A DNA stretch of 64,000 nt. It comes from Perkinsus olseni. Taxonomy: Eukaryota. A program made the translations under genes and the position numbers. Shown one piece after another: positions 25,685 through 62,100 of this stretch. Below the pieces are notes generated by a model. It did not search any database, was not told the DNA's origin, and worked only from the letters and a program-made list of their open reading frames with translations. Positions within the stretch are counted from its first letter, which is position 1, and every line of letters begins with the position of its first letter. The stretch is taken from assembly GCA_013115125.1 (NCBI GenBank), contig JABANN010000002.1, positions 1 to 64,000 on the forward strand. The letters are read 5' to 3'.

Positions 25685-28600
25685 CTAGTCGACAGGGATG
25701 GGCCCCATCTTCTGTGCCTCATAAATCCTCGAGTTCATAGCGTCGACCTCGGTCCATGCATTGCCTGTTGAGGCTTCCGCTAAGGGTTCGGTAAGGTCCG
25801 AGTCGGGTCCAGTGACCAGTCGTTTATACTCGATCAACGAGAACATCGCCTGAAAGAAGAAGAACTCTTCCTCTCTGTAACTTCCAGAATTGAAAGCATT
25901 CTATTTCTCCTCACGAGGTAGGTCGCGGGTTCGAATCCCAGCAAGTGCTTTTCGCGTTCCACGCTTCCATCGTGATTAATAATATCGTTCAGCTACTAGA
26001 CAACATTTAACAGACGATGGCGCTAACAACATTTGGGAACCACTATAATCTCCGAAGCGAGAAGACATCTTACCACAGCCACAAGAAAGGACACTGAAGA
26101 TACTATCCCAGCGGCCAAGAAGGTGATACCGCCATGTCCACGCAAACTAGTATAAGCGAAAAGGGAGCCGATGACGACCGGACCGATACAACCGCAGAGG
26201 GAAGTGAAGGACTGGAGGACGCCCAGGGCATGGCCAATCTTATCCGAACCAAAGTACCTGCCAAGCGCGATTGATACGGCCACGAAAGGCTGGGAGGCCC
26301 GAGACTGATTTGGCGAGTGATGACCGAAGCTAATCTATTGCCATGCGAAGCGACGCACTGTTAACTTTCCCTAGGGTCCCTATTTCTAGATTGAACCCTC
26401 ATGAGACTCACCTCGAGAGAATGGCGCTAAGGCCAGCTGGGAACCAAGAGCACGGTACGGCTTGCAGTGGTAATAGGCAGAATGCCATCACTTTGCTGTT
26501 CGTGAAGGCCATGCCAATTTGAAACACCACCAGGCCCAGTAAACCAGAGTATCTGAAGGCTTCAACCATCTCACCTTCCTCTGAAAGGTGAATTTGCCCC
26601 GATGCCTCTAGGTAGTCAGTCAACCCATTCGAGAGGCTGATTTGCCTAGTGAATACGTTCCTGCTCATCATTGCGACCGTCAGCGAGTCACTCGCTCACG
26701 AGCGGCATGCCTGTGATTTCGTCCATGAGGACCTCGCTCGCTGTTTAAATACAAGGCATTATAGGAGTCCTTTTGATGTGACTGTGGTACACTCTTTACT
26801 TTGTTAAGGAAGAATGCAACATGCAATGCTAAGCCCACTATGAGGCCACAGGCAGCCACGTCGCGCGAGAACAGCGATCGATATACGGGAACTACGGTGC
26901 TATATTCTTAGTTGGGCTGTCGAAACTGAAGTCGTTCACACAGCGCGACGACGAGATTGATCAATATTATAAAGTTGGCCTACATCATCCTCTCGCCGTT
27001 CATCCATCCCCTCTTGATCGCCCTCGGCAGCACCAGCAGGTTAACCAGGAAGCCCAGAATGCCAGACATAAACATTGTGAGAGATATGTCCTTCGGAGCA
27101 AAGTCCACGATCTGCTGCAGGTAGAGCAATTCGACCCCGGCCGAGCCGTCCCTCTGGATGTCCGTCAAGCACACGACGACACAGGCAGTGACCAGGGTCA
27201 TCGTCCGCGCAGAGAAGATTCTCCCGAACATGTGAATGTACGAATCCTTGCCGATCTCCGATGAATTTCGTGGCGCGCGACGTTCCCCGTCGTCATCCTT
27301 GTTGGTAGATCCTCCTTGAAGCGCGGAATTCGTCTCGGGTATAACGAAGAAGATGTAGAGAATCTCGATAATTCCGATGGCAGCACAGAGGAAGGCAAAA
27401 CCGGCGCGGCCAAATAGCAGGTTAGAAAGACGGCCGACCATCGGCCATAGGGCGATGCCGAGCATGATCAGACCACCGACCATAGAGTACCTAAGCCCGG
27501 CACTACGAAGTAATCCGATAAGAGGCTGAATGTCGTCAAGTGCTGCCAAGAGCCCATACCACATTTTCCGGTACTTGCGATGATTATCGCTAAGACACTC
27601 GCAGGGGCAATGATGTAACGATTACGGTATGCAGTCATTCGACAAGAAATTGGCAGGCGGGAGACTGAATACCATCGAGTATTGCAAAAAGCTCATACCA
27701 AATTTTTCGATACTTTACGTGAACTGAAGGTCCCTTTGATGGTCATCTTTACGACACGCGGAAAAGATTTGATAACCACGGTATCATCATTTTTGTATTT
27801 ATAGCAATACCATAACTTTTCCATATCTATACGCAGGGTGCCGTTAAAAAAACCCATCCCTCTTCAAGTTTTGGTAGCGAACGAGTTGAGAGATGTAACG
27901 CACACCAACAAGAAAAAAAAGGAAAAAATGAAAAAAGGAGAAAAGAAGAGAAAAAGGAAATGGGCGTGCGAGGGGTACAATACCCACCGGCAGCCGCGGT
28001 CCGTGCAGCTACAAGGCCGCGCACCCGAAAGGGTAGCAAAGGCTGCACAACAGCAACCGCACACCAATCGGAAGCTCGCGTGGGGCTCTCCATAACCGCG
28101 TTCACAGCCGCATCTTATTCGCAAGTTTCACCCTCGAAATACCGAACCAAACGCCGAGAAAATTCCGGCACTCTACTGAAGCGGAAAGAGCACGGCATGT
28201 GAACCCACCCTACTACATCCACAATCGGAAGGCGTCGTCGCCAGCAGCAGCATCAGCGAGACAGGCTGTACACAAAGCGAGCGGGCCCATGGTGGAGTTA
28301 CCTGATGAAGCAGAGGGAGATCTGCGGATTTGACCCGACCTTGGAGTAGAAGCTGGTAATTTCTCGGTACGAGAATCCCATGGCAGCAGCATGGCGTGGT
28401 AAAAGCGCGGTCTCTGTCGAATCGCAGTCCCTGCCTATCACCTGCAACGGCAGCGAGGAGCATTCCGACATAGTAGAGGGTCAGAGAGATGTGGTTCAGC
28501 CCGACGAGGAGACCAACCACTGGTAGAATCTAAAAGGCGTGAGCGCGAAATCTAATAGAAAAACCGAAAAATCGCGACTTACCAGAGCCGCGTAGGAGAG

Positions 28601-59149: not shown

Positions 59150-62100
59150 TCGCGGTTCTCTGGATAGGTAACTCATCAGCGCTGGCAAGTGCCCAGGGTT
59201 CTCAGCAGCAGCAGCAGCAGGTGGCAGTCAAGGGATAGTTAGCGGGAACTTCAAGAGGGCACCAGGTCCGTCTGCAACCGTTCGAGATTTCATCACGATC
59301 AACGCTGCGCATCCAGAACGACCCAGAAAAGCGATATGATTCCCCAACTAGCGAAAATCGTAAACTCTTTCTCCGACTTGTGAGAAGTGCAACTACCGTG
59401 CACCGTGCGCACCCTCACAGGCCTGCGCTCGCCGGTACCCCCACCTACTCGTTTAGCCATCCTGTCTCGTCTGCGGCGGCATCGGACTGGATGAAGCTGC
59501 TCGCCTCGGGATGGGCCGAGGCAGCGGCGGCGTCCTCGCGCTGCTCTTTGGCAAGGTCAGCTGATTGAGTCTGTACATCCTCTTTGAGAGTGGCGAGCTG
59601 AGTTGCGGGAAAGTTGGTATGGCAATCACGCACGCGCACGACTACAGCTTTCTCTGCTTTGGCCAGGCTCTGCTGGACCTTAGCGTCATCCTCATTCTCA
59701 GCCTTCAACGCCACAGCGTAGTCAGGCAGGTCCGCACCTCGGCCGAGCTCCAACAGGGATACCGGCAGGGACGATTCATCGGGATGTCGATGCTTCAGCG
59801 TGCGTGCTGAAAGAAATAAGAGGTTGTTGAATCCACTATCACCCATGAGCAGGAAAAACCGCGCGCCACGAAATTGCTTACACTTTTTCTTCGCGAAGTC
59901 CTCCAATGACTGCTTGGCTTCCTGTCGCATATTCATCGAGAACGATCTCGCCTCTCTAGCAATCTTCCTGAGGGGCTCCAAGAAGGCCGGGCCGCCAGAG
60001 GACTCCATGAAACTTGAGGTTGCCGCCGAAGACGGCGCTGAGAGCATCAGAGACAATCCGTTCAACAGCGGCAGGATGAAGCAGCAGGAGCAGGAGCAAA
60101 GTTGATGCATACTGCATATTGAGACGACGGGCGGAGTAAGGCGAGTGCTTGACGACAACACGTCCTCCCTACCTGGCTCCTCCACCAGCTTCTGCTCCTC
60201 CTTCTCAAATTCATGCTCTGACTTTTCCATCTTCCTGCAAAAACCCACACGATTCCGAACCATGTCGCACGCCACGAAATTTTCACTTGTCCGACTCCTC
60301 GCGTGCTCTCTCCAGCCTAGCGACATCCGCCTTCTCGTCCTTGACAGTCTTCGCCATATCAACATCCAGCCGGGCCATCTGCGTGTTCAACTGAAAGCCG
60401 CGCTAGTAGGCTGTGACAGAGCATTTTGTCACAGTCTTTATTGATGAGGAGCCTAACGACCAGCTGTACGCGTACAGCGAATTGCGCATTGGCGGTCTAT
60501 TCTTTTATAGCCTTCTATTGCACACACACTCATGCCAACCACCGTGGCCTAGTGCTACCCGTGGGCTGGATGGCTACCCAAAACGTTACGCAGGGACGGT
60601 CCGATCGTCCAGAGGCCGCGGCCAGAACTCACTTTTTTAACCATTTCGTCTGTCCTCTTCCTCATCTCAGCAACACTCGCGTCAGCAGTAGAAGTCGATC
60701 TGGCAGCGAGCTGGAAGAAGGAGCTTGGACTGGCAGAGCTCGAGGCCAGCTCGAGGAAGGAGCTTGGGGAGGAACTCGCCTGAATGAAGGTAAGCATTCA
60801 AACGGTAAAGACGGCAGACAAAGTGTCAGGCATCTACTACCAAGCATACGCGTAAGCGAGTACGCATACCGTCGGGCTCACCGAGTTAGGGGCTGCACCA
60901 CAGAATGTCGTGCCTCCAGCGAAGACCGAACAACTACTACTGCTGGTTCGATGCAACAGCGGCTCTAGCACCCTCGCATAGCCAACAACGCTCCGGCGAT
61001 TTCCTAGTTTCGCCACCAAAGCCGCTGGCCCAGGCATCCCGTCGGCGCTAAATCCCCGCTGCTCACTTCGAAGCATTTAGCCTTTCGTCCACAGGTCAAT
61101 ACATCGCCCTTAACCTTGTCCAGCTGGTACAGGTGCTTCGTGCACTCACTCTCGTCCTCTCCTCGGGACTGATGAATCTCCAGGCATTCCACCATCGAGT
61201 GGCATTCAATATCTGCGGACAAGTTTAAAAACCACGCGATGCCGCCGCCGGGGTTCGAACCTTGGTCGCAATTTCCGAGCTCGTAATCGCAGCTGCTCTG
61301 CAGACAGTTGGCGTCGATGCTCTCCAGGTTGATCATTGCTGGTTTGATTTCCGATGATTCTATCTCCACCATCGACTTGCCCTGACACCGACGAGCTCTC
61401 AACCAGGTGAATCCTTCAGAGTCTGTGACGGTGGCAACAGACCGCTGCTGCCTCTGCTAAATTCCAGCTGCACTCCCAGGATTCAATTTAACGCGTAAAA
61501 GACGATTCTGGCAGAGCTTCTCTCCAAGCTCAGGAGCGGCAGCAGTCTATTGAACCGCAGAACCGATTCAGCTAATCGGCCTCAAAACCCAGGTTCGATC
61601 CCTTCACAAGTTGAAATTCATCTCACGGTCAATCCTGAGCCTCAGGGTGGGTCGAATCAACAACCTCAGCTTATCGAAGAGCGCCTCATACCCCGAGCGG
61701 TTTGGCTACGAGTACATCACCGGATTCGACAGAGTTGTGGTACTACACCCCGATACCATCGAAAATAAAATTTGATAACTTCAAGTCCACTAATGGCATC
61801 CTCGTAATCTCACCTGAGCCACCTCCTCAAGGACCTTCTTCTCTCCAGGCACCACTCCCTCTGCTGCTTGCTCTGCTGGATCCGCCCTGCAATCCGATGG
61901 TGACGGACGAGTTTACTCAGCACGATTTTCCGCTCACGTTTTGACTCGCTGGCATCCAAAATCGAAGGCGCACTTCATCAGGCTGCCTTCGAGCACGGAT
62001 TCGTCCAGGCGACTGATGCCGTCGGTGCAGTGGTCCGCACCCTGCATACGCCGGGCCGATCGGGCGAAGGCCAGAGCCTTGGCAGCTACTGGAGAGAGCT

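Follow-up and report, generated by a model that had tools for sequence, protein, structure and literature searches.

Introns starting with a tRNA-3'-half-like module in a 64-kb window of Perkinsus olseni DNA

In a 64,000-nt stretch of DNA of the shellfish parasite Perkinsus olseni (GenBank assembly GCA_013115125.1, contig JABANN010000002.1, positions 1 to 64,000 of the forward strand; this whole stretch is called the window below), roughly one in eight spliceosomal introns starts with a stretch of 20-30 bases that resembles the 3' half of a tRNA. To judge by the position, orientation and content of these modules, module and donor site belong together. In its sequence, the module keeps its likeness to tRNA well past the B box; it is no tRNA, no RNA polymerase III (Pol III) gene and no folded T arm, and it is spliced out of the mRNA. 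The reading that we favour, with rather less than even confidence, is that these introns would form an old, much-degenerated, introner-like family of related short GT-AG introns descended from a cassette consisting of the 3' part of a tRNA gene. The source of new spliceosomal introns is a long-standing question, the known mass sources being transposon-like introners, and in Perkinsozoa, the sister group of dinoflagellates, introns have hardly been studied.

All results refer to this one 64-kb window and, within it, to five genes and 50 introns, which were defined from RNA contigs and from alignments with Perkinsus proteins. A first set of 42 introns (8,555 nt), 14 of them from RNA contigs and 28 from alignment with annotated Perkinsus proteins, was compared with 12,977 nt of exons, and eight introns (MFS, NAC) were added afterwards. 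RNA supports the junctions of the Vps53 introns, and those of the other genes were taken from computationally annotated proteins of related strains. Lengths in the first set were bimodal, with 16 introns of 44-71 nt and 26 introns of 98-1180 nt. For Perkinsus, introns have been reported in 69% of 104 genes, mostly of <100 bp (PMC3101222).

A tRNA-like module at the 5' ends of introns

The tRNA B-box pattern GGTTCGANNCC was found eight times without mismatch in the window, whereas 100 dinucleotide shuffles had 0.36 such sites on average and 4 at most (0.46 in 200 further shuffles); this bears out the enrichment over composition-matched shuffles that an earlier note on this DNA, made from the letters alone, had named as a check. 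When one mismatch was allowed, 27 sites were obtained with 13.9 expected; 11 were left after removal of the eight exact sites and their eight opposite-strand echoes, and apart from the site at 55200 there was no excess of such 1-mismatch sites. The pattern GGTTCGAATCC, searched in sense orientation, gave five matches with ≤1 edit in the 42 introns and none in the 12,977 nt of exons (shuffle mean 0.08), and with ≤2 edits ten matches in introns versus two in exons. Nine of these ten intron matches start between +1 and +26, the tenth being a true tRNA-Lys, and a comparison of the first 35 nt of introns with all other positions yielded a Fisher p of 6e-9 for the ≤2-edit matches. For the full set, matches in sense orientation near the donor amount to 5/50 introns at ≤1 edit and 10/50 at ≤2 edits. 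The eight MFS and NAC introns contributed one further match, GGTTCAATCT at +15 of the MFS intron 26258-26411, and another deep in a 431-nt intron. Altogether, ten of the 12 sense matches with ≤2 edits in the 50 introns start ≤26 nt from the donor, the other two being the T arm of tRNA-Lys and the deep MFS match, and the donor-proximal position holds even in introns of 154, 272 and 679 nt.

In a K+ channel gene of the cyclic-nucleotide-gated/ankyrin type, for which proteins of three Perkinsus species (P0122, P0123 and P0124) served as guides, the 50-nt intron 33433-33482 (plus strand) starts with GTAGGTC and has an exact B box at +15 (site 33447). Its removal restores the reading frame, all three guide proteins are contiguous over the junction, and a hidden Markov model (HMM) of the module core gave it 22.7 bits. 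The 49-nt intron 34655-34703 of the same gene and strand (GTAGGTCT..CCTGGGTTCCTATTCCC; junction from the P0122 alignment) is probably a decayed copy, its weak alignment with the family covering GTAGGTC and GGGTTC. A 679-nt intron of this gene (37496-38174, plus strand) carries GGTTCAATCG, with 2 edits, at +13.

For Vps53, contigs of the transcript-bearing runs X7, X8 and X9 (X7 and X9 labelled RNA by guess, X8 unlabelled) and of the DNA run X1 were placed on positions 42050-62049. The 52-nt intron 44148-44199 (plus strand; B-box site 44165) contains AAGGTCGTGGGTTCGAATCCTGGGAGGGGCAG, followed by nine T residues and CAG, and the corresponding joint 44144->44197 (cut +3) was present in X7, X8 and X9 and not in X1. 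The same distribution was observed for the joint 45996->46269, which removes the 272-nt intron 45997-46268 (plus strand), and for the joint 48146->48197 (cut +1), which removes the 50-nt intron 48148-48197 (plus strand). The former starts with GTAGGCCGCGGGTTCGATCCC, its module spanning 45997-46030 (site 46007), and also contains a tRNA-Lys gene. The latter is filled by an antisense piece resembling a tRNA 3' half (site 48164), the reverse complement of which reads GGGTC CCCGG TTCAATC CTCGG CTGAACC A.

The third gene with clear copies is a large gene on the minus strand, to which the P. olseni protein P0121 (1411 aa) aligns from 62728 down to 54278. In its 53-nt intron 55180-55232 (GTGAGACGCTAGGAAGGTCCCGGGTTCGAATCTAGG..TTTTTAG; 1-mismatch site 55200), removal restores the frame, the TAG of the acceptor would stop read-through and P0121 is contiguous across. 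Similarly, for the 49-nt intron 56715-56763 (GTAGTGGTCGCGGGTTCGATCCCGGG...; site 56741), the P0121 sequence ..QSEDK|SLEESEES.. equals the spliced reading of the window. The 48-nt in-frame interval 61213-61260 has a GT inside GGTTCGAACC (site 61251), and exactly these 16 codons are missing from P0121; it is probably an intron, with the GT of the B box as its likely donor. As with a second 48-nt GT..AG interval that is open in frame, 40373-40420 in the NAC-domain gene, reading through would just add 16 residues, and splicing of the two intervals is for this reason undecidable from the frame. Weaker matches in the large gene, each with 2 edits, are GGTTCGGAATCG at +26 of the 52-nt intron 60235-60286, the 5' end of which resembles intron 55497-55635, and TGTTCTGAATCC at +18 of the 71-nt intron 58516-58586, which has a partner in the 71-nt MFS intron 28702-28772 (minus strand). 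The 154-nt MFS intron 26258-26411 (minus strand), its junction taken from the alignment of the MFS protein P0125, carries its 2-edit match in sense and was examined only after the pattern had been fixed.

Two further pieces lie outside such introns or across the strand of the host gene. The plus-strand copy 25918-25951 (GTAGGTCGCGGGTTCGAATCCCAGCAAGTGC, then TTTT) had the highest core HMM score of all copies (25.9 bits), and no gene was identified on its own strand. A tRNA-like fragment at 61563-61615 (plus strand) consists of a 6-bp hairpin, CCGATT/AATCGG, and then an exact B box (site 61592); it is antisense to its host gene and sits midway in a ~430-nt gap between exons of the alignment, the borders of which are uncertain (alignment score 11). 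The core HMM was built from six copies, so that the E-values of those six are circular, and copies with indels were not reached by it; beyond the training copies it reported 61239-61261 (E = 0.04) and 62113-62144 (E = 0.076). The latter was rejected as a copy since it lies within a 213-aa open frame aligned with P0121, as was a candidate at 28689, which is coding and forms the opening bases of an MFS exon.

These results modify the picture drawn by the earlier note in several respects. It had placed the introns in at least five genes, and clear copies are found in three (Vps53, the K+ channel gene and the large minus-strand gene), with the weaker one in MFS intron 26258-26411. An instance at 25928 assigned to the MFS gene lies 72-105 nt past the MFS stop codon (26023) and on the opposite strand, and the several secreted proteins that had been named are one gene, given the alignment of P0121 over 62728-54278. 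Introns of ~50 nt with restored frame were as described for 33433 (50 nt), 44148 (52 nt), 55232 (53 nt) and 56763 (49 nt), whereas the intron with site 46007 has 272 nt. Splicing is borne out by RNA joints for 44148-44199, 45997-46268 and 48148-48197, and orthologous proteins support it for 33433, 55232 and 56763. Both orientations do occur, with two antisense pieces found, of which 61592 is a weak one in mid-intron, but the distribution is lopsided towards sense.

The likeness to tRNA reaches beyond the pattern used in the search. In five of the six sense copies, the 7 bases upstream of the pattern agree with AGGTCGC at 6-7 of 7 positions, and AGGTCGC, when joined to the B box, amounts to the stretch of the Rfam tRNA consensus line between variable loop and C62, AggcgcgGGUUCgAaUCC. 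In the copy 25918, TTTT follows directly after a 7-nt acceptor-like segment, as a tRNA terminator would. Pairing of the T-stem, however, was at the level of the controls, as the earlier note's remark that the T-stems are degenerate implies: 68.6% of cells were paired, compared with 71.1% for shuffles and 71.4% when the partner was slid by -1, there were no compensatory changes, and the three outer T-stem pairs were formed in 10 of 21 cells. Of the tRNA 3' half proposed in that note, the part from variable loop through T-loop is recognizable, while an acceptor strand is not and the 3' strand of the T-stem is without pairing. At E<=10, the Rfam model RF00005 reported 46167-46239, the true tRNA-Lys, and nothing else, both in the whole window and in 44100-48250, so that the check with a tRNA covariance model came out negative for the modules. 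ARAGORN likewise called tRNA-Lys alone in the window, and at the 85% threshold 45960-46030 was among 14 mostly spurious matches. No A box or 5' half was found at the proper distance except for the true tRNA-Lys, other candidates having 1-3 mismatches and wrong distances, and introns with the element had no unusual folding (z from -1.09 to +1.73).

Some candidates for additional tRNA parts were rejected. The exons upstream cannot be regarded as exonised tRNA 5' halves, as the exon upstream of 44148 matches Vps53_N positions 71-133 through its last residue. A 'tRNA-Gln' at 45960-46030 was called at the 85% threshold only, and the two exons around 45997 are too short for Pfam; a tRNA-Gly at 39964, called at the same ARAGORN threshold, has a poor cloverleaf.

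The genuine tRNA-Lys(UUU) gene at 46167-46239 (plus strand; T-arm site 46218) lies in the Vps53 intron 45997-46268, in sense to Vps53. It was called by ARAGORN and reached 61.6 bits with the Rfam tRNA model, and its A box TAGCTCAGTCG is located ~44 nt upstream of the B box. In DNA run X1 its 3' 59 nt had a depth of ~8 times that of the flanks, which indicates a multi-copy tRNA gene. Positions 44156-44171 are identical to this local tRNA-Lys over GGTCGTGGGTTCGA. For P. marinus, copies of tRNA genes are reported in the hundreds, for example 349 for tRNA-Leu and 116 for tRNA-Gly (PMC3706591).

Kinship of the copies and their possible origin

Outside the searched pattern, pairwise identity of the copies was 0.42-0.78 per block. 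The copies resemble each other outside tRNA-universal positions, which does not agree with the earlier view that they represent different isotypes. At column 23, the partner of G49, where the T-stem needs C, all six sense copies and the antisense copy have G. The T-loop variant tracks the sequence that follows, with AATCCT(T)GGGAGGG in 33433 and 44148 and ATCCCGGG in 45997 and 56763. In a permutation test that keeps splice sites and pyrimidine tail in place, 9 of the 190 pairs among 20 introns of ≤75 nt had z>4, and one cluster comprises 44148, 33433, 55232, 56763, 61260 and 60286, which belong to three genes. The 71-nt introns 58586-58516 and 28772-28702, which belong to unrelated genes, resemble each other from one end to the other (score 20; 500 null scores averaged 4.5 and did not exceed 14; z = 6.1). 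Introns 60286-60235 and 55635-55497 have their first ~35 nt in common (GTGA..AATTTCGTGGCG..GAC..GGTTC; score 12, null 5.3, maximum 13 of 500), and this likeness may be a further hint of intron copying. Alignments of the 5' ends of 42774 with 28216 and of 55232 with 26411 gave null-level scores, though short motifs look alike by eye.

Under the favoured reading of a degenerated family, the founder would have been the 3' part of a tRNA gene, consisting of variable loop, 5' strand of the T-stem, T-loop and what follows. The module brings its own donor, the GT of GTAGGTC in the variable-loop region. This GT opens the intron in two of the five clear intronic copies, a third starts with GTAGTGGTC, and the non-intronic copy 25918 also begins with GTAGGTC; the remaining two intronic copies use an upstream GT 9-18 nt away. 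G-runs come after the donor, and a T-run with YAG further downstream completes an intron of ~50 nt, which is the minimal size class here. Spread might have occurred by copying of an existing intron into new sites, for example by reverse splicing, or by insertion at the DNA level. A bolder version, in which most ~50-nt Perkinsus introns would derive from one tRNA-3'-half mini-element with a variable-loop donor, the B box would be under selection, TFIIIC would mark the 5' ends of many Pol II introns and the element, at ~50 nt, would be far smaller than any other known to generate introns, seems to us quite improbable. The intron of the spliced-leader RNA was dismissed as a source, as in P. marinus it starts with GTAGATATCAGGTCC / GTAAATATCAG and is without a B box (PMC3101222, primers in Table 1).

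Several observations weigh against a single family. In an all-versus-all blastn comparison of the 42 introns, no pair had E<1e-5, the value by which introners are operationally defined, the best pair being 45997/56763 with 18/18 identities, 36 bits and E = 3.2e-5 in a database of ~9 kb, and identical blocks common to copies have just 11-18 nt. The 31-mers of the modules are not repeated, which argues against recent amplification, and one DNA unitig of normal depth runs from 42050 to 46194. Transposon ends were not found at the copies: the flanks share 0-3 nt, and 2-5 of 14 positions match as terminal inverted repeats. There are six copies with an exact B box and one with a single mismatch, while the flanks are only ~50% alike; the B box is thus kept too well for uniform neutral decay of one family, from which the opposite ratio would be expected, and this suggests that either the B box is constrained or captures took place separately. 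The antisense copy differs in its T-loop (TTCAATC) and has four of five T-stem pairs, and copy 55232 has the stem CCGGG, so that separate origins of these two are possible. In addition, other introns have about twice the usual frequency of GGG at +7 to +40 (21.8 versus 12-13 per kb), and the G-rich similarity may be convergent. Finally, the evidence comes from a single 64-kb window.

Part of this would be accounted for if 3' pieces of tRNA genes or pseudogenes had been inserted many times independently, surviving where the variable-loop GT, or one close by, and a YAG downstream allowed splicing, the likeness among them reflecting tRNA universals. Such pieces would come from gene DNA or from copies of pre-tRNA, since CCA is absent. 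We consider this, the main rival, somewhat unlikely, although conservation is indeed centred on tRNA universals (GGTC, the G-rich 5' strand of the T-stem, TTCGA and CC) with AT, TC and AC at the free T-loop positions, and repeated capture would explain the well-kept B box (exact versus 1-mismatch, 6 to 1) and the unrepeated 31-mers. Both antisense pieces are also like tRNA 3' parts, with other T-loops or with a hairpin like that of an anticodon arm, a real tRNA gene is present within one of the introns, and hundreds of tRNA genes are on record for P. marinus (PMC3706591). On the other hand, the T-stems of pieces from working tRNAs should still pair, and the outer three pairs, formed in fewer than half of the cells, have no compensatory change; one mismatch, the G of column 23, is common to all copies, with the 5' strand intact and the 3' strand changed in all. 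By overall similarity the short introns group together, also in the sequence beyond the B box, and the pair of 71-nt introns, alike over the full length in unrelated genes, means that intron copying does happen here. Between copying of a founder and repeated fresh capture, the balance tips just slightly towards the founder.

In a different account, the core GGTTCGANNCC or TTC(N)GAA might be kept for a function, either as an isolated B box in the DNA bound by TFIIIC or, in the pre-mRNA, as a donor-proximal splicing signal of very short introns, and the likeness to tRNA would be co-option or convergence. It would fit that conservation is far stronger in the B box than in its flanks and that, among the 16 introns of ≤75 nt from the three genes examined first, 9 contain TTC(N)GAA, with ten occurrences versus 0.29 in shuffles (maximum 3 in 1000), some of these introns, such as 58061-57991 and 44396-44455, being otherwise un-tRNA-like; in the 26 longer introns the motif is at background level (6 in 7,704 nt). 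The near-donor position and sense orientation would likewise suit a signal at the RNA level. However, the likeness reaches 7-9 nt upstream into variable loop and T-stem, which neither a B box nor a TTCGAA signal needs, and the best copy (25918) lies outside any identified intron. The motif is absent from all four short MFS/NAC introns and from seven of the first 16, the normal folding of the element introns lends no help, and the spacing of the core varies from +2 to +34 from the donor and from 25 to 59 nt from the acceptor, unlike that of a fixed splicing signal. Taken together, this account is in our estimate unlikely. TTCGAA as a branch site was rejected because of the same 25-59-nt span to the acceptor.

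Very improbable, finally, is that whole tRNA genes once resided inside introns and decayed in place, which corresponds to the decay of a large intronic tRNA population offered in the earlier note. The intact tRNA gene in intron 45997-46268 and the large tRNA gene families described for Perkinsus (PMC3706591) would agree with it. Such decay, however, should leave pieces in either orientation, anywhere along an intron and from whichever part of the tRNA, whereas ten of 12 sense matches are ≤26 nt from the donor, it is always the 3' part that is present, and no A box or 5' half is found upstream. What lies upstream of the module is conserved coding sequence, Vps53_N continuing to the last residue of its exon.

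The window, its genes and further observations

The window is eukaryotic nuclear DNA rich in GT-AG introns. A malate dehydrogenase gene without introns at 52508-53455 encodes a protein with 98% identity to that of P. olseni, 93% to that of P. marinus and 92% to that of P. chesapeaki, which marks the window as Perkinsus DNA (Perkinsozoa, Alveolata). A metagenome scan anchored on this gene gave 80 loci, the best of them 64% identical, and these loci had no part in the intron analysis. The K+ channel, Vps53 and MFS loci have orthologues in P. olseni, P. marinus and P. chesapeaki with protein identities of 69-97%. Sampled words of 44000-53999 were present to 97-99% in six DNA runs, and the sequence is thus no assembly oddity.

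For Vps53 at least 14 GT..AG joints were obtained, each of those listed being present in X7, X8 and X9 and none in DNA run X1, and 29 further joints fall in 42050-62049, with thin RNA coverage over 54-62 kb. Joining of the Vps53 exons yields 625 codons in a single open frame. In run X7, a 1149-nt RNA contig without splicing (42744-43892; depth 23) lies wholly within the 1180-nt first listed Vps53 intron and could be a separate transcript or a retained intron. The MFS protein P0125 defines six MFS introns.

The region 54278-62728 on the minus strand constitutes one gene of 8.4 kb for a repetitive protein of >1400 aa with a signal peptide and no Pfam family. Exon by exon, its identity to the P. 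olseni counterpart is 43-97%, compared with 97-98% for malate dehydrogenase and the K+ channel, and by this comparison the gene is fast-evolving. Within it, two contigs of DNA run X1 join 55629 to 59858, skipping 4228 nt with the ends AC..AA and a shorter side of 23 nt, and many loose contig ends occur at both positions; the joint is either due to a short repeat in this repetitive gene or represents a shorter allele.

Outside these genes, an open frame of 2146 aa without introns (8287-14727, plus strand) contains a PIF1-like helicase domain at residues 1550-1687 and, C-terminally, a GIY-YIG nuclease domain. It sits in a stretch from 8 to 20 kb with 40-42% GC, versus ~50% elsewhere, and has the look of a mobile or foreign element. 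At 25107-25180, an AT-rich, nearly perfect palindrome of ~70 nt matched many microRNA-precursor models on both strands, with 38 bits versus a threshold of 93.5, and is probably just a hairpin repeat.

Comparison with known systems

SINEs (short interspersed elements) of tRNA origin contain the 5' part of a tRNA with an A box, depend on Pol III for transcription and possess a tail related to a long interspersed element (LINE). Like them, the Perkinsus modules are short and dispersed and have a tRNA-derived portion with a B box, but they comprise the 3' part alone, lack an A box and are located at intron starts. The extra TFIIIC (ETC) sites of yeasts are isolated B boxes bound by TFIIIC, which are described as lying between genes and as unconnected with splice sites; the common feature is a B box, here a match in sequence, that is kept well although no tRNA gene goes with it.

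In the same genus, Dada elements of P. marinus are described as DDE transposons of 4.7-11 kb inserted in the A-box region of tRNA genes (PMC3706591). According to that description, P. marinus has a very large tRNA gene population ridden with mobile elements; nothing Dada-like flanks the modules reported here.

We could not find a paper describing tRNA-like intron starts in full-text literature searches. The main texts of two introner surveys (PMC9860276, PMC12130899) mention neither Perkinsus nor tRNA; their supplements may list more species. With only 11-18-nt blocks common to the copies, introner pipelines based on similarity would miss them. If the favoured reading is true, a tRNA-derived cassette that supplies the donor and is barely of intron length would be a new and very simple source of introns. 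If the B box is under constraint, factors of Pol III would be linked to the 5' ends of introns.

Like introners, the modules occur in introns with normal GT-AG splicing in unrelated genes, namely those for Vps53, the K+ channel and the large secreted-type protein. Introners of algae, dinoflagellates and other protists are described as intron families that carry or create splice signals, and they occur also in relatives of Perkinsus (PMC9860276; Amoebophrya, PMC7789003). They are defined by blastn E<1e-5 between introns (PMC12768974) and are said often to have direct and inverted terminal repeats, whereas the best pair of Perkinsus modules has E = 3.2e-5 and terminal repeats are absent. Fungal introner-like elements, as portrayed in PMC3609843 and PMC4457414, differ in comprising hundreds of near-identical copies that exceed regular introns in length and are predicted to fold stably; the Perkinsus copies have ~50 nt, identical blocks of 11-18 nt, no unusual fold and a core that looks tRNA-derived. 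Both cases have in common related introns in unrelated genes, and the fungal elements, in the same accounts, degenerate, both in sequence and in length, until they are indistinguishable from regular introns.

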